Positions 11,001 to 57,500 of a stretch of DNA of 64,000 nucleotides are shown here, in pieces. The stretch's first letter is position 1. Each line of letters starts with the position of its first letter. A model generated the notes under the pieces. It ran no database searches and was not told the DNA's origin. It saw only the letters and a program-made list of their open reading frames with translations. The stretch covers positions 1,779,536 to 1,843,535 of the forward strand of contig NC_090417.1 in the NCBI RefSeq assembly GCF_036365525.1. The letters are read 5' to 3'. The translations under genes and the position numbers were made by a program. The DNA comes from Heterodontus francisci (lineage: Eukaryota).

Positions 11001-14000
11001 GATTACAGCAGTATGTTACCATTCTGACTAACTGCAGTGTTTTTCCATCACCCCTGTGTTCACTGACATTGGTTCCATGAATGGCTTGGTTTTAAATTTC
11101 TCATCCTCTTTGTTCAACTTCCTCCATGGTCTCACCTCTTCCTTCCTCAGTAGCCTTCTGCATCCCTACAACCCTCCAAAACCTCTGTGTTCCTCCATTC
11201 CACGCCTGTGCAGCACCTTGGGGCTTTATGAATGCAAATTGTTGTTAAAATAATTAAATCAGTGGAGGTTGTTGCAGGCATGTCAAAATTGCAAGTTGTT
11301 GTAAAGACTCTGTTGTTGTTAATACAGGGAAGCCCGAACCACTGGTGTTCCATGTCCCACAGGCCTTTTTTGATGCCCTGCAGCAGAGGATTTCAATGGG
11401 CAGTAAAAAGAAACGTCTACCCAACTCCACCACAGGTAACGCATGTTACTCACCTGTGCAGGTGTTGCATTGCACCAAATTCCAGGACAAGTATGTCGAG
11501 GTGAAAGTGTGTGACAAACAAGTACGTGACCCTGGTAGGTTAAAGGGATTGGGTAACGCCTTGGGTTACTCAGCATCCTTTCACTTCCGGGAACCTGGGT
11601 TCAGATTCCGCTCAGCCAGTTGGAATGAATGTTGCCTTTAGTCTGCTGCCATTCTCCCAGGATTGGAACAATCACGACCCAATTTCTACTTGTGGAGGAG
11701 ACCAAAGAAGCCATTAATATAAGCTAATAATTTGAATAGGGAATTCAGTTGAAGCAATTTCCTGCAATGAGTGGCTATAATATGGAACTTGCTACCACAG
11801 AGAGTAGTTGAGGTGACTAGCATAGATGCATTTACAGGAAAGCTATCTAAACACATGAGGGCGAAAGAAATAGAAAGGTATGCTGATGGGGTTAGAGGGA
11901 TGGAGGAGGCTTTTCTGGAGCATAAACGCCAGCGTAGACCAGTTGGGCTAAATGGCTTGGTTCTGTGCTGTAAATTCTATGTTATTTATCGCAGCACGAA
12001 ACTGCTTTTATTGTTTATTATTAGAATTAGGAATTACAGTCAGAGAAAACATGACCGTGGTTGATGTGGGAATTGGTAGATTTCCATTTGTTCCCAATGC
12101 ACTTTAGAGGCTGTAGAAAGGCACATTGGGTTCAGAGAGGAGTGACTTTTGTGTGCACCTGATGGTGATGCTAAATGAACACTGCGGAAAAGCCATTCCC
12201 TACCACCATGAAAAACAAAAATCCAAAACAACTTTTTTTTAAAAAGCTAAACGAAACACTGATTGTTCTTTCCTGCTGTGTCTTCGCTCTCCATGCTGCA
12301 CACTGTCTTCACCAGATGTGGTGACTTTCGTTCAGATTTCTGCCAGGACTGCAGAAGCACCATTCGCTCTGCAGTTATCCGATGAGACTTGGAACAAACT
12401 TCATTCCAATTATTTTCCCCTTTCTCTGGTTCTAGAAGCCGCCCATGGCTTTGTTTATCGACTCTTTGTGGGAGTAATGATGACACGGCTTCGCACAACT
12501 ATGTCTAAAATGCCATTTAATTTTGCAGAGAAGTACGTAGTGTGTGTGTGTACATATGTGCATCTATAATATATATATATAATATATATATATATACGGC
12601 GCTTGAGGTGGCTTGGCCATGTGAGCCACATGGAAGATGGCAGGATCCCCAAAGACACATTGTACAGCGAGCTCGCCACTGGTATCAGACCCACCGGCCG
12701 TCCACGTCTCCGCTTCAAAGACGTCTGCAAACGCGACATGAAATCCCGTGACATTGATCACAAGTCGTGGGAGTCAGTTGCCAGCGTTCGCCAGAGCTGG
12801 CGGGCAGCCATAAAGACTGGGCTAAAGTGTGGCGAGTCGAAGAGACTTAGCAGTTGGCAGGAAAAAAGACAGAGGCGCAAGGGGAGAGCCAACTGTGCAA
12901 CAGCCCCGACAAACAAATTTCTCTGCAGCACCTGTGGAAGAGCCTGTCACTCTAGAATTGGCCTTTATCGCCACTCCAGGCGCTGCTTCACAAACCACTG
13001 ACCACCTCCAGGCGCTTACCCATTGTCTCTCGAAATAAGGAGGCCCAAAAGAAATATATATATATTATATATCTCTAGTTGTGTTTCGTGAATTGTGATG
13101 ACTTCATGTGTCACAAACAAAAAGCTTGAGTGGTTTATTAATCTCACCTCAACTTGTCAACATATCACTCCTCGGAACACATGAGAATGTTGAAGGGTTC
13201 GAGGATTCAGTTAAACTTCAAAGTTAGAAATAAGTTTTTCTACCCGAAAAGTAACAGAATTGTGAAATAAGTTGCCAGGGAGGACATTAATATGCTCAAG
13301 AGGCAGTCGGATGCAATTCTCAAAAAATTAATTGAGGGATGTGGTGAAACAGAAAGTGTAAACAGAAAATGGTGCGAACGCTGCGCAGGTAAGGCAGCAT
13401 CTGTGGCGAGAGGACGGTAAGAGTCATGTTTCAAGTTGATGTTTGTTTGTCTGAGTCTTCACTGAAAGGACAGGCTTGTGTCTGATGCTCTACTGTTGCA
13501 AAAAATTCTTGCGTTCTTACTAAGTTTCTGGCTGGTCTCTCATTGCATTGCCCAGGGATGGTCTTGAATTCTGGAGCATGGCTGTCATGGTGCTGTTGAG
13601 AATGAGCTGTGTTTAATCCAGCAAGTCCCCTGTGTGAGGAGGGAGAATAGAAACAGGCTGTTGGATCCAACAAGTCGATGCTGGCATTTGTGCTCCATAC
13701 GAATCTCCTCCCACCACATTTCATGTTCCCTCATCAGCGTTACTCCTTTCTCCCTCGTGTAACTATCTAACTTCCCTTTCAATGCAGCTACACTATTCGC
13801 CTCAACCACTCCTTGTAGTGGCGAGTTCCACATTCTAACCACTCTCTGAGTAAAGACGGTTCTCCTGAATTCCAGATTTGAATTAGACAGCTCCTGAGAT
13901 CAAGTGGAGACTTTTTGCTGAGGTGAATTTCTGTAGCCTGGCAGCTGCTTTTAAATCTGTAGCTCCTGCCCTGGGAGAGAGGCTGGGTGATCCAGGTCGG

Positions 14001-17000
14001 AAGAAACAGCGCAAAGTAACCAATTTTCTTTCCTTTTTATGCTTTTGGCACTTTGATATGTGACATCTGACGTGTGTGTTGTGCCTTGTAGGTTTTGTTC
14101 GGAAGGATGCACTGCCTCTGGGAACGTTCTCCAAATATACCTGGCAGATCACAAATGTTCTGCAGGTCAAGCAGATATTTGATACCCCGGAGGTAGGTAG
14201 AGTCTGCAATAAGGCTCCAGTACTCCCACTGAGCAAAGGCCAAGCCTTAAGTCTCAACAAGAGAAAATGTTAGCGACTGCATTTCAACAGACCTCCGCTT
14301 TCCATACAGATCCTGTGTGGAGTTTGCAAGTTCTCCCTGTGTCTGCGTGGGTTTCCTCCGGGTGCTCCGGTTTCCTCCCACATGCCAAAGACTTGCAGGT
14401 TGATAGGTAAATTGGCCATTATAAATTTCCCCTAGTATAGGTAGGTTGTAGGGAAATATAGGGACAGGTGGGGATGTGGTAGGAATATGGAATTAGTGTA
14501 GGATTAGTATAAATGGGTGGTTGATGGTCGGCACAGACTCGGTGGGCCGAAGGGCCTGTTTCTGTGCTGTAGAACTCTATGACTCAATGAGTTTAGATGT
14601 CCTATGTGGTTCAATGACTGACTGGCTCACAGAATCATTCAGCACAGACGGAGGCTCTATTTTGGCCCATTATGTCTGTCTGGCTCTTCGAAAGCAAACT
14701 CTTTCCCCATAGCCCCGCAGATCGTTCTTTTTCAAGTAGATATCCAGTTTATTTTTTAAATTTACTTTTGAATCTGCTTGCCCACCCTTTCAGGCAGTGC
14801 ATTTCAGATTATAACAACTCACTTTGTGGAAAAAAATTCTTATCTACCCTCTGGTTCTCTTGCCAATTATTTCAAATCTCAGGTTACTGACCTCACCCTG
14901 TCACTAGAATCAGTTTCTCCTTATTTATTCTATCAAAGCCACTCCTAATTTTGAACACCTCTGTTAAAGTAGCTTCTCTCGTCTCTCCACGTAACTGAAG
15001 TCCCTTGTCGCTGGTACCATCCTAGTAAATCTCCTCTGCACCCTCTCGTGGGTGTTTTTCATTTAGCAGTCTGAATCAAGCACTCCTGGATCAGCTACAA
15101 CAAATTAAATGCAGAGTAAAGATGTCTCAAAACTCGTGTGAAAATTCTGTCGGTTAATTTTAGCGCAACTTTGGCCAAATGGTCTATTGTGCTGGAAGCT
15201 TTTGTGGTTGTTACCCCTTTTCACAGCTCAATAATTTTAGAATTGTAGAATGGTTACAACACAGAAGGAGGCCATTAGACCTGCAGCATCTGTGCTGGCT
15301 CGCTCACAAGAGCAACTCAGCTCGTCCCACTCCCCTGCCTTTTTCCCATAACCTGGAAAATTGTTTCTGTTCAGATAATTATACAATACCTTTTTGAAAG
15401 CCACAGCTGAATCTGCCTCCACCACGCTCCCAGGCAGAGCAATCCAGATCCTAACCACTTACTGCCTAAAAAGTTTTGCTTCTTTTGCTAATCACCTTAA
15501 CTCGGTGCCCACTGGTTCTCAATCCTTCTGCCAACGAGAACAGTTTCTCTCCAGCTGCTCTGTCCAGACCTCTCATGATTTTGAACATCTCTATCACATC
15601 TCTTCTTAATCTTCTCTTCTCCAAGGAGAACAGCCCCAGTTTCCCCAACCTATCCACATAATTTAATTCCTTCATCCCTGAAACCATTCTCATAAATCTT
15701 TTCTGCACCCCATCTAATGCCTCCGCATCCTTCCTAAAGTCTGGTACCCAGAATTCGGCACAATACTCCAATTGAGGCTGAACCACTAAAGCTTCACCAT
15801 AACTCCTTGCTTTTCTGCTCTATACCTCTATTTCTAAAGCCCAGGATCCCATATGCCTTATTAACCACTTTCTCAACCTGCCCTGTCACCTTTAGTGATT
15901 TGTGCATATTTACCACAGGTCCTTCTGCCCTGCACCTCCTTTAGAATTTTATCCTTTATTCCATATTGCCCCTCTTGGTTCTTCCGACCAAAATGTGTCA
16001 CTTCACACTTCCTGTGCATTAAATTTGACCTGCCACATGTCCGCCCGTTCCACCAGCCTGCCTATGTCCTCCTGATGTCCTCCTCACCGTTGACAATATT
16101 TTCAAGTTTTGTCATCTGCAAATTTTGAAATTGTGCCCCATACACCCAAGTCTAGGTCATTACTATAGATCAAGAAAAGCAGTGATTTCAATACAAACCC
16201 CTGAGGAAGCCCACTACATAGCTTCCTCCAATCCGAAAAACAACAGTTCACCACAACTGTTTGTTTCCTGTCATTTAACCAACTTTGTATCAATTTTTAG
16301 CCCATCCACTGTCTCAACGACCTCCTCCTTTTCATGATAACTTTGGCAGCATTTTCTTCCTTGGTAAAAATGGATGCAAAGTGCTCATTCAGTTTCTCAC
16401 CCATGCTGTTAAATTTAACAAGGATAATAATTTTAGCCCGAGTGTGCTGGAACTCCAGAAGACCATCAACCTAGTGAACTTGTCTGATATTCACATTTCA
16501 TATGGATCTGTTCAAGTGGCCTCTCGAAGGTGAGCCACAAAATTGTGGCTAGTTCTCAGCTCTGGTTTGAAGCCTATGAGGAATGGATAGGTAGTGGCCA
16601 AACTTGTCCTGCTCAACATCAGTGCCACCACACAGTGGAGACTTAAATCTAAGTAGATTGGATTCAGGCTCAGTTCCCAGAGCCTGTCCTGCTGCTTAAC
16701 CACTGAAGTTGATAGGTCTAGAAACTGCTGGAAATACTCCGCAGGTCAGGCAGCAGCTGTGGAGAGATGAGCAGAGTTAACGTTTTTCAGGTTGATGACC
16801 TTTCATAAGAACAAGTCAGGTACTTTTCTGACAGAATAATTTTAACACAAGCTTTAAGCATTGTACTTTGACACTGTGTTCGTGCTGTAATGCATCAGAA
16901 TAGAAAGCACAAGGACATAGATTTAGACCCATGAATGCTGGGTGAAGGCCAAATGCTTAGGAATGTGGAGGGAGGAAACTATTGAGAGACACGTATACAC

Positions 17001-24114: not shown

Positions 24115-24311
24115 GAAGTGCAAAATATTGCAATGCTGAAATCTGGGGGGGGAAAAAACACACACAATGCTGGAAATACTTGGCAGGTCTGGCAACATCT
24201 GTGGAGAGAGAAATCGAGTTGTTCATTGACCTGAAATGTTATCTGTTGCACTCTCCACAGCTGCTGGCAGACAAGCTGAGTATTTCCAGCACCTTCTGTT
24301 TTTTTTATTTT
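24115..24311. mobile_element. Inverted pair of Penelope-like termini inserted in an L2 fragment
   Basis: Arms 24168-24208 and 24251-24291 are near reverse complements and match the 32995-33040 tail; flanked by an imperfect CACACCA..TCC duplication. Confidence 0.6.
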
Positions 24312-31300: not shown

Positions 31301-34300
31301 GCACCCCAGCACAAGTCTGCTGATTTAGGAACAAGGCAAATAAGGAGGTTTGGCTTTTGTGGGCCTGACTAGTTATCTTTGCATTTATTTCAAACAGCAC
31401 TACGCCAGTCGCCGAGGGGATTATGAGATCTGTGAGTATTTACTGAGGAAGGGTGCAAACAGCAATGCTCAGACTAAAGGAGGGGCAACCCCTCTCCACA
31501 GGGCTGCCTACTGCGGCCACCTCTCCATCCTCAACTTGTTACTGTCCTACGGAGCCATCCCCGCAATCACAGATGATGATGGTGCGACCCCTTTACACAA
31601 GGTAATGTGGCAATGATTTCAGCGCCTGTTCTCCTGCCTGTCCATTTGTCCTTTGTTTCTAAGAAGTCGTTCAGTACCTCCCTTCTGTCCCATGCAGCAT
31701 CCCTGGCAGAGATGGGAACAGATTCTGAAAGAACACTTTTACAATTTCATCGGAGCATCGGCCAGATTTACGGTGTCACTTACGCCTTAGGGACCAGAGG
31801 AAATCTTTAAATGTAATTTAACTTTTCCTCTTTGGTGATGAATTTCTCTTTGTGGCCACTTGGTGGTACTGCATCGCCTCCCAAATGGAGCACAGCAGGT
31901 TCCTCATCTCAACAACAACATCGTAGAACATCGCAAGGCGCGAAACAGCAGCATTATCAAACAAAATTTGACATTGAGCCACATAAAGCGACATAAGAGG
32001 GAGCGTCTTAAAGGAGGAGAGAGAGGTAGAAAAGTGGAGAGGTTTCGGGAGGGAATTCCAGAGCTTCGGGCCCAGGCAGCTGCAGGCACGGCCACCAATA
32101 GAGGGGCGATTAGAATCAGAGAGGCGCAAGAGGTCAGACTTGGAGGAGTGCAGAGATCTTTCAGAGCTGGAGGATGTGTAAGATTCTGATCTCTGTCTTC
32201 TCATTAATTAATAGGTTTGAGAGTCCCGTTTCAGCTACTTTAATACTTCATTAAGAAAGACAAGATTTTGCGTCTGCCTTAGCTTGTACTGATATATAAT
32301 GATATATGTCTACATACTTGTAAATAGATAATTCCATTGGCCCGAGCTCCCCGCACTCGACCTTCATTCCAAACTGCCCACAGATTATGGAGACCAAACG
32401 CAGATTGGGTGACCGCTTTGTGGAACACCTCCGCTCAGTCCGAAAACATGACCCTGAGCTTCTTGCCATTTCAGCACCCCCCCCCCTACTGTCATGGCCA
32501 CATCTCTGTCCTGGGATTGCTGCAGTGTTCCAGTGAACATCAATGTAAGTTCGAGGAACAGCATCTCATTTACCGATTCAGCATGCTACAGCCTAATGGA
32601 ATGAACAATGAGTTCAATCATTTCAGAGCATGACTGGCCCCCTTTTTTATTTTTAATTTTTATTTTTATGTCATTTTATTTTAGTTTGTTTCATCATTAC
32701 ACTTTTTTATCATGTGCCTGCCCACTTTTTTTTTCATGTTTTGCTTTTGGTTTGGGCTTTCATTATTCTGTCATTTAACACCCTCTCTGCACTAATGCTT
32801 TGTCTTTCACCACACCATTAACACACTGTTTGCCTTTTCCCCATGACTTCCTTGTCCGTTATTCTCTGTGACCCTATGTCCTATCAACACCTTCCCTTTT
32901 GTTCTCTTTTGCCCCACTCCCGCTTTATTTGCTTAAAACCCATGACATTGCTAACCTTTGCCAGTTCTGATGTGACCTGAAACGTTAACTCTGCTTCTCT
33001 CTCCACAGATGCTGCCAGACCTGCTGAGTATTTCCAGCCCTTTTTGGTTTTATTTATGTCCACGGATTCTATTGCATTATACATTTATATTTTGACTATA
33101 ATGCATCCAATTTTAGCCACAGGATATGATGTCAGCATAATGTCAGCTGCGGTTCACTGAGTAGCACATTCGCCTCTGAGCCAATCTTTATCCCTCAACC
33201 AACATCACTGAAAAAAACAGATTATCCGGTCACTATCACACTGCTGTTTGTGGGAGCTTGCTGCGCGCAAATTGGCTCTCGTGTTTCCTACACCAGTGAC
33301 CGTACACCAAAAGTATCTCATTGGCTGTAAAGCGCTTTGGGACATCCTGAGATCTTGAAAGACGCTATAGAAATGCAAGTTCTTTTCTTTATGGCAGTCA
33401 GTTATTCGCTCTTTGTTTAAAACCAGTTTTTGCCCAGTTCTGCAGTATTGACTTGGCCTAGGCCCTCATTGCCGTTACAATATTCTGGTTGAGCTTCGCT
33501 CGCTCTCAGTACTTTTCCACTAAGTCTTGTCAGTTCCATGTTAAGCCCCCCTTCCCCTGGTTGACTAAAGCCAGGTGATATGTAATTCCATCTAAGAATC
33601 GATGGCCTAAATCCAGTTTGATAAGAATACCTTTTGTTAGCCCCTCGCTGCCTTATCTTGCTCTGGATGTTTTCTGCACAGAGTTGTCTCTGGCACGTGC
33701 TGCACACACACTCTCTCCTTCAGCGGCCCAAAACGCTCCACCTAAATCTGTCTCTTAATCAGTTCTATTAGACACTGTTCTACAGTGGGGAGGTCCAACT
33801 TACAGCAAGGACTCCTCTCTAGATGCTAAGAGTAATTTTTTTTTTATCCCTTCGTGGGATGTGGCCAGCATTTGTTGTCCATCCCTAATTGCCCTTGAAC
33901 TGAGTGACCTGCTGGGCCATTTCAGAGGGCAGTTAAGAGTCAACCACATTGCTGTGGGTCATGGAGTCACATGTCGGCCAGACCGGGTAAAGATGGCAGA
34001 TTTCCTACCTTAAAGGACATTAGTGAACCGGATGGGTTTTTTTTGCAACAGTCGATGATCATTTCGTGGCACCATGACTGCTTTCAATTCCAGATTTTTA
34101 TTAATTAATTGAATTTATTAATTGAATTAAAATTCCCCCAGCTGCCGTGGTGGGATTTGAATCCTGTGTCTCCGGGGCATCAGCCCGGGCCTCTGGATTA
34201 CTAGTTCAGCGACATTACCACTCCGCCATCGTCTCCCCTACCAGTGAGGAGTTTGCTCCAAAACCACCTTGCAGTGACCTGCTGAGTGTGATGATGGTGA

Positions 34301-48500: not shown

Positions 48501-51500
48501 CTGCTGTCCTTGGCCACAATATAAAAGAAATTGTGTAAGGTTTAAAGAAAAAGGTAGCAGAAGCGACAGACGGCACAGTGGCGCAGTGGTTAGCACTGCA
48601 GCCTCACAGCTCCAGCGACCCGGGTTCAATTCTGGGTACTGCCTGTGCGGAGTTTGCAAGTTCTCCCTGTGACCGCGTGGGTTTTCGCCGGGTGCTCCGG
48701 TTTCCTTCCACAGCCAAAGACTTGCAGGTTGATAGTTAAATTGGCCATTGTAAATTTCCCCTAGTATAGGTAGGTCGTAGGGGAATTGAGGGAAGGTGGG
48801 GATGTGGTAGGAATATGGGATTAATGTAGGATTAGTATAAATGGGTGGTTGATGGTCGGCACAGACTCAGTGGGCCGAAGGGCCTGTTTCAGTGCTGTAT
48901 CTCTAAATAAATAAATAAATAAGCGCTTTGAGAGAGCCAGCACAGGTTCGATGAGCCAAATGGCCTCAATAGTGTGCTATAAATTTCTCCAACACTGTTG
49001 TACAAGGTACTGTTTCGGTCAGTGAAAATAGCAAAAGCAAAATACTGCGGATGCCGGAAACCTGAAATAAAAGCAGAAAATGTTGGAAATGCCCAGCAGG
49101 TCTGGCAGCGTCTGTGGAGAGAGAAACAGAGACGACGTTTCTTCAGACTTATATTAAATGTATTTGATATGAAATAAAAGCAGAAAATGGTGGAAACATG
49201 CAGCAGATCTATCAATGTCTGAAATAGGAAAGGCAGGCTACAAAAGGAAGAATTTGTATTTTCAACCCCATACCAGACATCCCAAAGCTTTTGACGGCCA
49301 ATGAAGTATTTTTGAAGTGTGGTCACTGTTGTAATGTAGGGGTTAAGTGTAAACTGTCCATCAGAACTGTACCCAGTCTCTTTCCAGGAGAAGTCGAGCC
49401 TATGTCTCAGATTTTATATTTCCCTTCCCCTGTTTTTGTCGGCAGATGTTTTGTTTGACTTGTTTTCTGGGCCAGTAATATTGTTGAATCTGCTTAACAG
49501 TGACTCCATTAGCTAACTGCTTACCATGTCAGACACACTGCTTGCTCTGCTGCTCATTCTCAATTTGAGAGGAGCAGAGCTGAGCTCTGATGTGTCGGTT
49601 TTAGACTGTATCAGTGTCGATGTTATATCAATGTTTCATTTCCGTCAGTATTACACGAGAACCTTGATTCTGTGCTCACATTTCTGAATTTTGACCTGTA
49701 CCCATAACCGTCTGCCTCAGGGGCGAGAGTGCCTGCCTAAATGATATTTGCATTTATATATATCCCCTTATCACTTAAAACCAATAAATAGCTCATGGAT
49801 TGCAAAGATGTTTTATGTAAGCAAACCTAACTAATTTTGCCTGCAGCTGCATCTTATAAACAGCCGTTAGGATGAATGGCAAGTTTGTCCTTTATTTGGC
49901 AAGACTTAACTGCTCTGAGTGAGCTTTTAGGCGAGATCGCACCGAGAGTACTGCGTACGGTTTTTGGTCTCCCACTGAAGGAGGGATTACACTTGCATTG
50001 GAAGCAGTTTAGAGAAGGTTCACGAGGCTGATTTGTGGATGAAGGGGTTGTCTTATGAGGAAAGTTGGAGCAGGTTGGGCCGATACTCATTGGGGTTGAG
50101 AAGAATGAGGGGTGATCATATTGAAACATGCAAGATTCTGAGGGGGCTTGACAGGGTAGATGCTGAGAGGATATTTCCCCTCGGTGGGGGGGAAGGTGGG
50201 CAGGGGGTCATCTAAAACTAGGAGGCACAGTCTCAAAATAAGGTGGCTCCCATTTAAGACGGAGATGAGGAATTTCTTCTCTCAGAAAGTCGTTCACCTT
50301 TGGAATTCCCTTCCCCAGAGAGCAGTGGAGGCTGGGTCCTTGAATATATTCAAGGCTGAGTTCGACTGGTTTGTGATCTACAAGGGTTATGGGGGGACAA
50401 GCAGAAAAGTGGAGTTGAGGCCACAATCAGATCAGCCGCGATCGTATTGAATGGCAGAGCAGGTTCGAGGGGCCGAATGGCCGACTCGTGCTCCTGTATC
50501 TTATGATCTTATTTTAGTCGCCTCTCCTAACATCGAATTTGGCTCTGCGTCGATTTTTATTAGGTTGCGTTTCTGTGAAGCAGCTTGGGACATGCTTATA
50601 CATTAATGGTGCCGTATGCTAGTTGTTGGTGTTTGAGGGAGGAATGTTGGTCAGGACATGGAGAACCAGCTGAATAATATTATGGGATCCTTACAGTGCA
50701 CCCATACTGTGGGAGGATGCCAGGGTGTTATTCCTTCATCCACAATCCGACCCCTCTGACATAAAGCCCTCGATTGCTTCAATGCTGCATCTAGTGCAAC
50801 CATAGAGGAACTTAACAAACTCTTAGCTCCTGATATTGCAAACAGTTTAATGAACTGTGCAGTACCTTCTCTTACAGCTGGACGTTGGCTCTGTCTATGA
50901 TCTTCCAGGTATGTGGTGTTACTGTCATTCTGCACAATATAAACGTTTTAGCTTTGTCGGGTGTCAGAGAGGGACCTAGTTGAGGCGAAAAGGGTTAAAT
51001 TATAAGGGCAGGTGTGCATTGACCGGGCCCGTGCTCCCGCGAGTATAGAAGGTTAAAGGGTGATCAATGTTGAGGTGTTTAAGATAATTAAAGCAGTTGA
51101 TAGTTTCTCTCGATCTAGCCTGTTTTTGTCTGGTGGGGGAGCCAAGAAAAAGAGAGAATAACCTTAAAATCAGAGCCAGGCTGTTCAAGGGTGATGTCAG
51201 GAAGCACTTCTTCACACAAAGGGTGGTGGAAATCTGGAATTCTTCCCCCAAATTCTATTGAGGTGGAGGTCAATTCAAAAATGTTACAACTGAGAGAGGG
51301 TGAGAGAGAGAGAGAAAGATTCTTCTTAGGGAAGAGTATGACAACTCTGATTGAACCAAGTTGGGTAAAATGTCGTTTAGATACAGATCCGAGGGGCGCT
51401 TTGATAGAGGCCTTTAAAACTGTGCAAGAATTTGATAGGGTAGATGTGAAGATGCTCCCATTTGTTGGGGGGACCAAAGCTAGGGGCCATAAATATAAGA

Positions 51501-54500: not shown

Positions 54501-57500
54501 TTTCCTCTTATGGGAGAATCGGGGTCACTGTTTAAAAATAAGGGGTCACCCATTTAAGTCAGAGAGAAAAAATTTCTCCTCTTCTGAGGGTCATGAGTCT
54601 TAGGTATTCTCTTCCTCAAAAGGCGGTGGAAGCAGAGTTTTTGAATATTTTTAAGGCAGAGGTAGATAAGTTCTTGATAAGGGTGGGGGGGGGGCGGGGG
54701 AGGGGTGGTGAAAGGTTATCGTGGGTAGGCGGGAATGTGGAGTTGAGGTTACAATCAAATCAGCCATGAACTTCCTGAATGGCAGAGCAGGCTCGAGGGG
54801 CCGGGTGGCCCCTTCCTGCTTCTAATTTGTATGTTTGTAACACGATCAAAGTTGAAAAGAGAAGATGAGATGAGTCAGTGGACAGTGGGTCAGTGTGACC
54901 TGAGAAAATCCTGCAGATTATAAAACGAAGGAAGATTAGGTGGGGGGGGGGTTAGAAACTTGATGGCACTGAGATCCCGTGAAAGAGAAGGATAGATGCT
55001 GACTGTCCCACTCATTCCCATTTCCGCAGGCGGTTTTACATCACCCCTGTTTTTATTTCCGTTGGACTCAGCAGTGGAAATGAGAACAGTGAGAAATATG
55101 AGGTAGGCTGCAGGCTCGCTAACAACCGTTTAATGCCATCGCACGTTGTTGCTATCTACCCCGCGAGTCAGACTGTTAAATCACAAATTTGAACTCAGTG
55201 AGGACTCAGAGGAGGGAGCACAGACTGGACAGGAGACTTGGATTGTTGGAAGGCAGCACAGACGATATCGAGTGTCACCAATATAGAGGTGAGGCCAGAA
55301 AGGCTGACGGGCTCAAACATTTATTCTGTTCCTTTTTTTTCCAGTGGCAAAAGGGCTTGTGACGAACTTGAAGCATATGTTTGGGGTGGAGACTGATAAA
55401 AAGGATGGTGTGGACTCCTTTCTTGAAGTTAGCTTTGCCGGCAATAAGGTGAGTCACAGATAGTCCTTTCTTAATATGTTGCCCAGTGGCACAGCGAGTT
55501 GATACAGCCTGTATCTGAGTTACAGAGACAAACAATGACCTGAGTTTGAGCTCCCCGCCTAGTCTGTCATGTCCTGGGATGGAGTGGGGAGAGGATGAGT
55601 GCCCCAGGACGGGGCTGGTGGGGAGAGTCCCGGGACGGAGTGGGGGATAGAGGGCAGATGGAGTTGTAATTATTCAGTCCTGGGATGTGAGCATCGCTGG
55701 CCAGGCCAGCATTTATTACCCATCCCTAATTGCCCTGGAGAGGGTGGTGGTGAGCTGCCTTCTTGAACCGCTGCAGTCCGTGTGGGGTAGGTACACCCAC
55801 AGTGCTGTTAGGGGAGGGAGTTCCAGGATTTTGACCCAGCGACAGTGAAGGAACCGAGATATAGTCCCACGTCTGGTGCGTGACCTTGGAGGGGAGCTTC
55901 TTGTGATTCTGTTTAGACTGCCTCATCCTCACTGTACTGAATTACGAGAATCGTAATACAAATACTCGCACTTGATGAATGATTTTTTTCATCTGTGAAG
56001 GTCGTCACCCAAAAGTCAGGGGAGGTAAAAGCGACTAAACAGATTGGCCAAAAACCTGGTGAAAGGTGGGAATTTAACTCTCTGTCCTCCTTGCAGGTAG
56101 CTACAAAGGTGATTGAGAACCACATAAACCCTGAATGGAACCAAGTGATTTACCTCCAGAGCAGGGTAAGTTTCAAATGATCCCTTTTGATCCGAAACTG
56201 AGAAGCGCAGGATTAAAGCTTCCTGCAGATAATGGAGAGGGAAATGTCATACAGGTCAACTTTTAAGTGCTAATACTGCACGATACTGGGGCTAAAAGGG
56301 TTAAATTGAGGACAGGTTGCATAGACTGGGCTTGTGTTCCCTCGAGGATAGAAGGTGTGATCTTACTGAGGTATTTTAATTGAGGTGCTTTCCCTTACAT
56401 TGGTATTCATGTGGATTGTCCTGATGAGTGCAAGATGAAAAGTTTCGACAAAATGTCTCTGTTTTCAGCGATACTCAAGTTCTGTACTACCAGGTGACTT
56501 TTGGAGGTATTTTAAGATGATTAAAGAGCTTGATCGGGTAGATTGATTCCTGACTGGGACACCATGGGGCTGCAGGGAGGAATCAAGGAAGCTCAGGTCA
56601 GTGTGTTTAGTGTTGAGGGGATAATGCGGCGGAGTTTGGACCAGAGTTTTGAAGTTCTCCAGAGAGGTGGAAGTTGAAAGGTTTTACAGCGAAGTCGTGC
56701 TTGCCAAAAAGGGAATGTCGCAGTATTGGACAGCCAGACAGTGGGCCCAAAGTTAGCAGCAGTCTCTGTAAATGCGGGAAATTTGCAGCGACAGCTATCG
56801 GCAGGCCAGCAACGGAATGATCCTTTGCATTTATTTTTCTCCACAGTTTCCGTCCTTGTGCGAGAGTATCCGCTTTACAGTGTGTGAACGGTAGGTGAAG
56901 GTCACTGCATTTCATTCACTCTGGTGGGGCAGTCTGCTGCACCCTGACTGTTAAACCTGCTTCTTCCTGCTCGCGGGCTCTTGTCCTGTAAGGTTCCGCT
57001 CTACTTTGCTCACGCTGCCATTTCTCCCTTCCCCACGACGCACTGCCTCAGCGATGTTCTCTGAATCTCGTAAACGTCTTTTATCTCTCTCATTCTACCT
57101 CCCAGTGTTCTCATGTTACTCTCACCTCGCCGATCTCCTGCTCTTCCACTCTCCAGATTGCTTTACCTTTCCAGCAAACGGGATGTGCACGCTTGTGCAG
57201 GTTGTGTTTGTGGGTGCAGTTTCCCCACATGTATGCGTCCGTTGTCAAGGGAAGTTTGCTTTTTGTAAATCTCTCGCTTTGCGGAGGCTTTTGTTTCCAT
57301 TTTCTTCCTACCTGTTAGTAAGTTGCTGATTCTCGCTGGCTTATAGTTCCACAGCAGCTGGAGGTGGGGAGGGGGTGTATTTGAGTAGCGATCAAGAACC
57401 ATAACCCTGGCTGATTTTCTATATTGGGACATTTCTTTGTCAAGAAAGAAGAGAGAACTTGTTTTACACGACGTCAGGACACCCCATAGCACTTTACGAA

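Follow-up and report, generated by a model that had tools for sequence, protein, structure and literature searches.

The 124-bp insert that interrupts a LINE remnant in a ferlin intron is very probably the 3' end of a 5'-truncated copy of an abundant autonomous Penelope-like element (PLE), with a hammerhead ribozyme that is likely inactive in this copy. The initial annotation of the window, which is the whole 64,000-nucleotide stretch of DNA analysed, had taken the insert to be a separate non-autonomous ribozyme element that could cut its host intron. Dead PLE ends like this one number in the thousands, and the insert reveals little about ferlin.

The insertion site and the surrounding host gene have the following features:

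56097-56165, + strand: ferlin exon upstream of the host intron, a C2-domain segment (phmmer; joined to 56847 in an RNA-type contig)
56166-56846, + strand: host intron, 681 nt, GT..AG (sequence; 681-nt-skipping joint in run X6)
56290-56379, + strand: LINE RT remnant (the target), left part (translation, match to sister remnants; left bound approximate)
56368-56379, + strand: target-site duplication, left copy (repeat search, flank-pair control)
56504-56515, + strand: target-site duplication, right copy (repeat search, flank-pair control)
56504-56546, + strand: LINE RT remnant, right part (translation, match to sister remnants)
56847-56890, + strand: downstream ferlin exon (read from sequence; covered by the X6 contig)

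Both the sequence and a repeat search confirmed the annotated 12-bp direct repeat, GAGGTATTTTAA, at 56368-56379 and 56504-56515, its two copies spaced 124 bp apart. The flanks of the insert, when translated across both sides, give one unbroken RT tail, both 12-mers contain a T that a sister remnant at 50981-51053 lacks, and 3,080 mismatched flank pairs gave no 12-bp match by chance. For these reasons the 12-bp duplication flanking the insert is a true target-site duplication (TSD). A search for an empty site with the right flank returned a single short match only. The continuity of the RT tail upholds the annotated insertion into a LINE remnant, which is probably CR1-like but had no library match.

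The ribozyme and the host intron lie on the same strand, and the best phmmer match of the exon at 56097-56165 is myoferlin 459-479 (E 3.8e-7), in agreement with the annotated position on the sense strand of a ferlin intron. The exons are joined across the 681-nt intron in one contig of run X6, which we guessed to be an RNA-type run; run X7 had no coverage of the ferlin exons. About 113 kb downstream on the same strand there is a Ferlin_C match (G000:C47:1949080-1949241, +), likely the end of the same gene, which scores below several other ferlin loci. In run X5, from a second organism (organism B) in which the PLE family of the insert is also present, a 177-nt contig covers 56215-56388 with 4 differences and 3 gaps.

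Within the insert we distinguish the following parts:

56380-56385, + strand: 5' junction sequence outside the element, 6 nt, resembling the target just upstream (family homology begins at 56386)
56386-56502, + strand: 5'-truncated 3' end (pLTR and tail) of an RT and GIY-YIG PLE (89-95% matches; L070; full units L113 and L117)
56453-56497, + strand: first codons of the element ORF, then a stop (the same start runs into the ORF in L070 and L079; homologous N-termini in P0010, P0020, P0038 and P0048)
56478-56502, + strand: optional PLE 'tail', between two 3'-end modes (3'-end clusters at +50-59 and +75-84 from C3; bounds approximate)

A genome search with the insert returned 1,411 candidates, 40 of which were scored and had 89-95% identity (self excluded); together with five exact core variants found at 2,218 places, this answers the question of copy number raised by the initial annotation, as the sequence is not single-copy. 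Family homology is confined to 56386-56502 of the insert, L070 matches across that whole interval, and the last 50 nt of the insert encode the start of the ORF. By these limits and the ORF-start codons the 124 bp consist of a 6-nt junction, an element end of 117 nt and 1 more base, so that the annotated element holds for 56386-56502 but not for 56380-56385.

All 30 fetched loci have the same 3' end, and sister copies extend 5' from -69 to -869 nt relative to the cut site, into a GIY-YIG frame. In locus L038 the RT motifs DKG (KPDKG), GSPLS and YVDD are followed by VIYEFQCQCDARY..RTSQRL and then by the insert's own 3' end. The GIY-YIG domain of the parent element reads VIYEFQCQCDARYIGRT..QH..GQH, with two Cys in the stretch that separates GIY from YIG and two His further on. 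Pfam RVT_1 is weak on L038 (E 0.013) and the GIY-YIG model missed L038 itself; in the homologue P0009 both models are over cut-off, as is RVT_1 on P0010. A search with the RT piece gave 1,047 relatives, the best 120 of which are 43-62% identical.

The layout of complete units could also be read. In L117 two same-strand ends 2,848 bp apart enclose a region corresponding to amino acids 4-837 of the intact homologue P0010, and a similar pLTR-ORF-pLTR arrangement is found in L113, L116 and L119, two of them interrupted. The 5' pLTR runs into the ORF in L070, L073 and L079. The pLTRs are thus direct repeats around the ORF that include its first codons (L117, L113, L116, L119; L070, L079), and a related start motif occurs within the first 40 residues in 14 of 35 homologues of at least 780 aa. 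The linkage to Penelope RT/GIY-YIG ORFs for which the initial annotation had suggested looking is present in L038 and L117. No PLE ORF was found by tblastn in the window or in the 200 kb downstream, and viral contigs gave no relative.

The copies have the hallmarks of PLE insertion. Those studied are the best-scoring matches and not a random sample; among the 56 with both ends in view, total insert lengths range from 104 to 2,538 bp with scattered 5' ends, and the 117-bp insert is the second shortest. Direct repeats of 8-15 bp are found at the ends of 16 of these 56 copies, against 2.8% of 3,080 controls, and a clear duplication is absent in the other 40. The 3'-end map was drawn from 90 hammerhead-spanning copies in 70 loci, after 6 duplicate or off-target loci were dropped. 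Of its 84 scorable 3' ends, 27 fall at +50-59 from C3 and 43 at +75-84; the latter mode is inflated because a tailed query was used to choose the first 29 copies. In 15 of 18 two-copy loci a tailed end is paired with an untailed one. Inverted 5' copies are found in the family; the insert itself is truncated and tailed, without inversion. Two neighbouring pairs, in L054 and L121, are convergent and tail to tail, unlike the usual divergent inverted pair; the L121 pair proved to be separate insertions, as did the same-strand-looking pairs in L114 and L115.

The CX2-5CxxC linker is absent between RT and EN in four homologues (P0002, P0009, P0010 and P0020) and, by reading, in L038. Its absence from the four points to an element of the Penelope/Poseidon type, a placement made by motif. 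The 22 best-scoring body copies differ by 4-9% from their majority, with no two more than 92% alike, and this suggests that the family once expanded in a burst. The family reproduces the two-start 'tail' signature, along with TSD lengths, in a large vertebrate genome, a result of modest value.

The reading of the initial annotation, in which about 124 bp make up a mini-element or retrozyme of their own, non-autonomous and mobilised in trans as a unit, is largely refuted, and we give it very little probability. The insert is indeed short and flanked by a TSD, the cis ends likely required by the PLE protein are present in it, two more copies are about as short (L016, 123 bp; L078, 104 bp), and non-LTR retrozymes are described as deriving from pLTRs (10.64898/2026.07.22.740005). 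However, these short copies begin at different bases, contigs of the same sample continue upstream of 56386 and 56389 into family sequence (46 and 74 contigs, respectively), and the copies with scattered 5' ends lead into GIY-YIG and RT. ORF codons lie inside the insert, and its two core changes are unlinked and mark no subfamily. The tandem arrays for which the initial annotation had proposed a search were not seen in the 20 two-copy loci, none of which is a same-strand pair within about 3 kb. What the annotation had described as a retro-inserted, TSD-flanked hammerhead of the Penelope type with a short stem III is supported.

The hammerhead in the truncated PLE end is made up as follows:

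56407-56413, + strand: pseudoknot 5' strand, pairing with 56429-56435, with an A-A mismatch at 56409 (predicted)
56416-56451, + strand: type I hammerhead (sequence, core-variant counts, family alignment)
56416-56420 and 56447-56451, + strand: stem I, TTGTC and GACAA (sequence)
56421-56427, + strand: CTGATGA (CUGAUGA) box (sequence)
56428-56436, + strand: GTGCAAGAT, with G10.1 at 56428, loop II at 56429-35 and U11.1 at 56436 (C in the family)
56437-56440, + strand: GAAA box (sequence)
56440-56445, + strand: AAGTTT palindrome region, AAGCTT in the family (sequence)
56446, + strand: C17, the cut-site position of the UUC triplet (sequence)

Both boxes, the perfect stem I, the near-palindrome AAGTTT and the UUC site are thus where they had been annotated. 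The proposed 2-bp stem II is better read as one G10.1-N11.1 pair, G-U here, plus a pseudoknot. The insert copy has the CUGANGA and GAAA boxes, an NUH triplet and stem I, which is compensated between families; it lacks the G10.1-C11.1 pair, position 11.1 being C in 40 of 61 less-biased copies of the family. Taken singly, the motif is not significant: a loose two-box pattern has 4 matches in the window and 11 of 100 shuffles reach 4, and the insert folds no better than its shuffles (z -0.17). The Rfam check that had been suggested gave no hammerhead match in the window. The identification of the putative hammerhead is based on the family and on covariation, not on the motif by itself.

The covariation comes from comparison with a diverged family. 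Loop II (UGCAAGA) is complementary to UCUUGCG, which lies two bases before stem I, and a 7-bp pseudoknot is predicted. A motif scan of 78 related metagenome loci gave 26 candidate motifs, among them a diverged family with UCUGACG/UGUCAGA and AUCCC/GGGAU at spacing identical to that of the insert's family; the RT pieces of the two families are 35-55% identical and their blastn match is little or none. Between the families both sides have changed in 2 of the 7 pairs of the pseudoknot and in 3 of the 5 that form stem I, whereas five of six slid controls have no such change and the sixth has 1. The alignment is ungapped and has 8 rows, 3 from the insert's family and 5 from the other, so that it is in effect a two-family comparison. 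Within the family we found no covariation, either with a 2-bp stem II or with the pseudoknot, which is expected for neutrally decaying copies.

That the hammerhead-like string is due to chance, or has been preserved solely because the start of the ORF codes for protein, has a negligible probability in our view. An intact copy scores only 14 bits against Rfam Hammerhead_1 (E 1.1; gathering score 34), and the lack of covariation within the family would also fit such an origin. Against it, the motif lies upstream of the ORF, whose ATG comes 7 nt after the cut site, and both boxes, the palindrome, the spacing and stems with compensating changes are retained in diverged relatives whose blastn similarity is slight or absent. 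In those relatives the hammerhead motif is found about 200 nt after their ORFs.

Versions of the pseudoknot with 5 bp occur in L131 and L197, and none was seen with the longer-stem-II motifs of more distant loci. Seven metagenome contigs of a related PLE family (L134, L138, L143, L148, L153, L127 and L128) carry a hammerhead with U at position 3 (UUGAAGA); they have mostly a UUU triplet and the same pseudoknot geometry. Pseudoknots that link stems I and II are a frequent feature of hammerheads, and disrupting the one in a hammerhead with a one-pair stem II lowered activity 20- to >100-fold (PMC3088659); a related pseudoknot form has an extra helix (PMC11300833). In term searches the word 'pseudoknot' was absent from the main text of PMC4209133 and from the 2026 preprint 10.64898/2026.07.22.740005, and a literature search returned no paper on the insert's PLE family. 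Such pseudoknots may already be in Lunse et al. (RNA Biol 14:1499) or in the supplements of PMC4209133 or PMC8557442. That a widespread Penelope subclade has a type I hammerhead whose single G-C stem II is locked by a conserved 7-bp pseudoknot, and that this is both real and undescribed, is a tentative proposal that we consider possible but rather doubtful. If true, pseudoknot-braced ribozymes could be fast dimeric cutters, and the genome, with at least 895 exact-core copies, would then have a reservoir of intronic and intergenic ribozymes that are potentially active. The covarying pseudoknot also offers a clean test of the poor in vitro cutting by PLE hammerheads, as constructs without the upstream strand would miss the contact.

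The insert copy appears to have decayed. Its core nucleotides are all intact and stem I is perfect, and it has three lesions: the G10.1-C11.1 pair, now G-U; the centre of the palindrome; and the pseudoknot pair 56409-56433, now A-A. The predicted pseudoknot duplex is -1.5 for the insert copy vs -5.7, and the predicted palindrome duplex +2.4 vs -4.3. It differs from the family majority in 13 of 118 columns, the family mean being 10%. The core, pair, palindrome and stem I are all kept in 11 of 61 less-biased copies, and the pseudoknot as well in 4 of them. Counts of exact 29-mers in the genome were 895 for the commonest core, 855 for U11.1, 387 for G12A and 40 for the palindrome change; the 29-mer with both insert changes (U11.1 and palindrome) occurs 41 times, with about 38 expected if the two are independent. 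We considered the U11.1 excess as a sign of selection or of a subfamily and set this aside, since CpG context explains most of it and there is no linkage: in the 22 body copies ACG decays 1.8x faster than TCG (0.216 vs 0.123), near the 2.2-fold excess of U11.1 over G12A (855 vs 387), and U11.1 is unlinked to four subfamily sites (Fisher p 0.57-1). Given this faster ACG decay and lack of linkage, decay after insertion is the simplest reading of the insert's changes; U11.1 may also have been inherited from a U11.1 source element.

Cutting of the host intron by pairing of copies, as the initial annotation had envisaged, is unlikely in the light of these three lesions, a worse sense partner and the spliced X6 contig. 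Over 294 kb (the window, 200 kb downstream and 30 kb upstream) the only other family copy is a small fold-back, which lies in the same ferlin gene at a distance of 98 kb (G000:C47 ~1933521-1933682; window-extended 153986-154147). Its sense arm has a broken GAAA box (GGAA), palindrome and stem I, and its antisense arm has intact core boxes. Predicted double-hammerhead energies were -8.9 kcal/mol for an intact pair (L026), -4.5 for insert plus intact, +2.8 for an insert pair and +5.3 for insert plus the sense partner. These energies only rank copies, as neither the pseudoknot nor the core is included in the nearest-neighbour model, and all lie far above the dimer minimum of about -22 to -26 (intact copy, -8.9 vs -22.7). 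Stem II and the dimer stem can both be maintained by G-U pairs, and an intron that is cleaved can still be spliced. Minimal PLE hammerheads are inactive as monomers and weak as dimers, even designed ones (PMC4209133), and the Anolis Poseidon hammerhead needs protein and is dispensable for insertion in vitro (PMC11167929).

It is quite improbable, on the same evidence, that the truncated PLE end still cuts ferlin pre-mRNA at 56446, whether through an intact family transcript in trans or through the PLE protein. The intact core boxes and stem I, the predicted -4.5 kcal/mol of the heterodimer with an intact copy, the abundance of family ends in the RNA-type contigs of X6 and X7 and the protein assistance reported for the Anolis hammerhead (PMC11167929) would allow it. 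Against this stand the structural lesions, a stem I probability of about 0 in the folded intron, the splicing of the intron and the weakness of such minimal hammerheads as designed dimers (PMC4209133). The insert copy is also as diverged as its sisters and has no sign of selection.

From known PLE biology, we propose that the element protein would have nicked an AT-rich site and that reverse transcription would have begun in the pLTR/ORF-start RNA, at the outer one of its two start points, and halted after about 117 nt, with repair then adding the 6 junction bases and the duplication. The hammerhead of the source element was presumably of type I, its one-pair stem II reinforced by the 7-bp pseudoknot, and this ribozyme may have cut as a dimer through AAGCUU, with two pLTRs about 2.85 kb apart in one transcript. 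Neutral decay would then have removed the G10.1-C11.1 pair, the palindrome centre and one pseudoknot pair from the insert copy, which would seem to have no competent dimer partner in the pre-mRNA stretch searched.

The window also contains the ends of another hammerhead-bearing repeat, unrelated to this family and more frequent, with CTGATGA..5-bp stem II..GAAACGTT, at 16720-16812, 24153-24306, 32929-33055, 49054-49210 and 13360-13406, all decayed, and further downstream (window-extended) at 71864-71957, 83476-83582, 107849 and 197783. These are probably the 'other Penelope termini' of the initial annotation, and its statement that the insert belongs to a different family is borne out; the palindromes of the two do not match.

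Among known systems the insert's family resembles canonical EN+ PLEs of the Penelope/Poseidon type, such as Pen2a_Av of Adineta vaga (PMC3846280; clade features in PMC8557442). They share a single ORF of about 840 aa with RT and C-terminal GIY-YIG, a pLTR that includes the first ORF codons, an optional tail, an inverted 5' copy, heavy 5' truncation and the absence of a Cys-rich linker. The TSDs are 8-10 bp in rotifer Pen2a_Av (PMC3846280) and up to 15 bp in the insert's family, the tail is about 25 nt here compared with 31 in Pen2a and 30-40 typically (PMC3846280, PMC8557442), and the insert copy lacks an inverted partner. Poseidon of Anolis carolinensis (PAc, PMC11167929) is alike in having a hammerhead at the pLTR-ORF junction, two tail-defining 3' ends and AT-rich targets. 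In PAc, however, the ORF begins inside the ribozyme and reverse transcription starts at ORF +111-118, whereas in the insert's family the ATG follows the cut site and the ends lie about 25 and 50 nt into the ORF.

Non-LTR retrozymes are similar in their relation to pLTRs, their type I hammerhead and their small size, but as defined in 10.64898/2026.07.22.740005 they are tandem, with at least 2 consecutive hammerhead units, and non-coding, neither of which is true of the insert. With no same-strand pair in the 20 two-copy loci, the insert's family is not a retrozyme by that definition; the scattered 5' ends and internal ORF codons also depart from a non-coding unit with fixed ends.

As for the ribozyme itself, the minimal hammerheads of metazoan PLEs (Cervera and de la Pena 2014, PMC4209133) are likewise type I, with a short stem I, a palindromic 15.1-16.1 region and G10.1-C11.1, and are mostly dispersed single copies from truncated PLEs, predicted to act as dimers. 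Their helix II is long (7-8 bp in Schistosoma) and position 10.1 is preceded by an additional base, whereas the insert's family has one stem II pair, no extra base and the 7-bp pseudoknot. The one-pair case tested by Perreault 2011 (PMC3088659) is a microbial type II hammerhead, while that of the insert's family is type I. The crystallised PK hammerhead (PMC11300833) has an extra helix IV and a long linker, where the insert's family has no such helix and a 2-nt linker, and both of these pseudoknot-stabilised forms differ from the insert's family in that the latter has no monomeric stem III.
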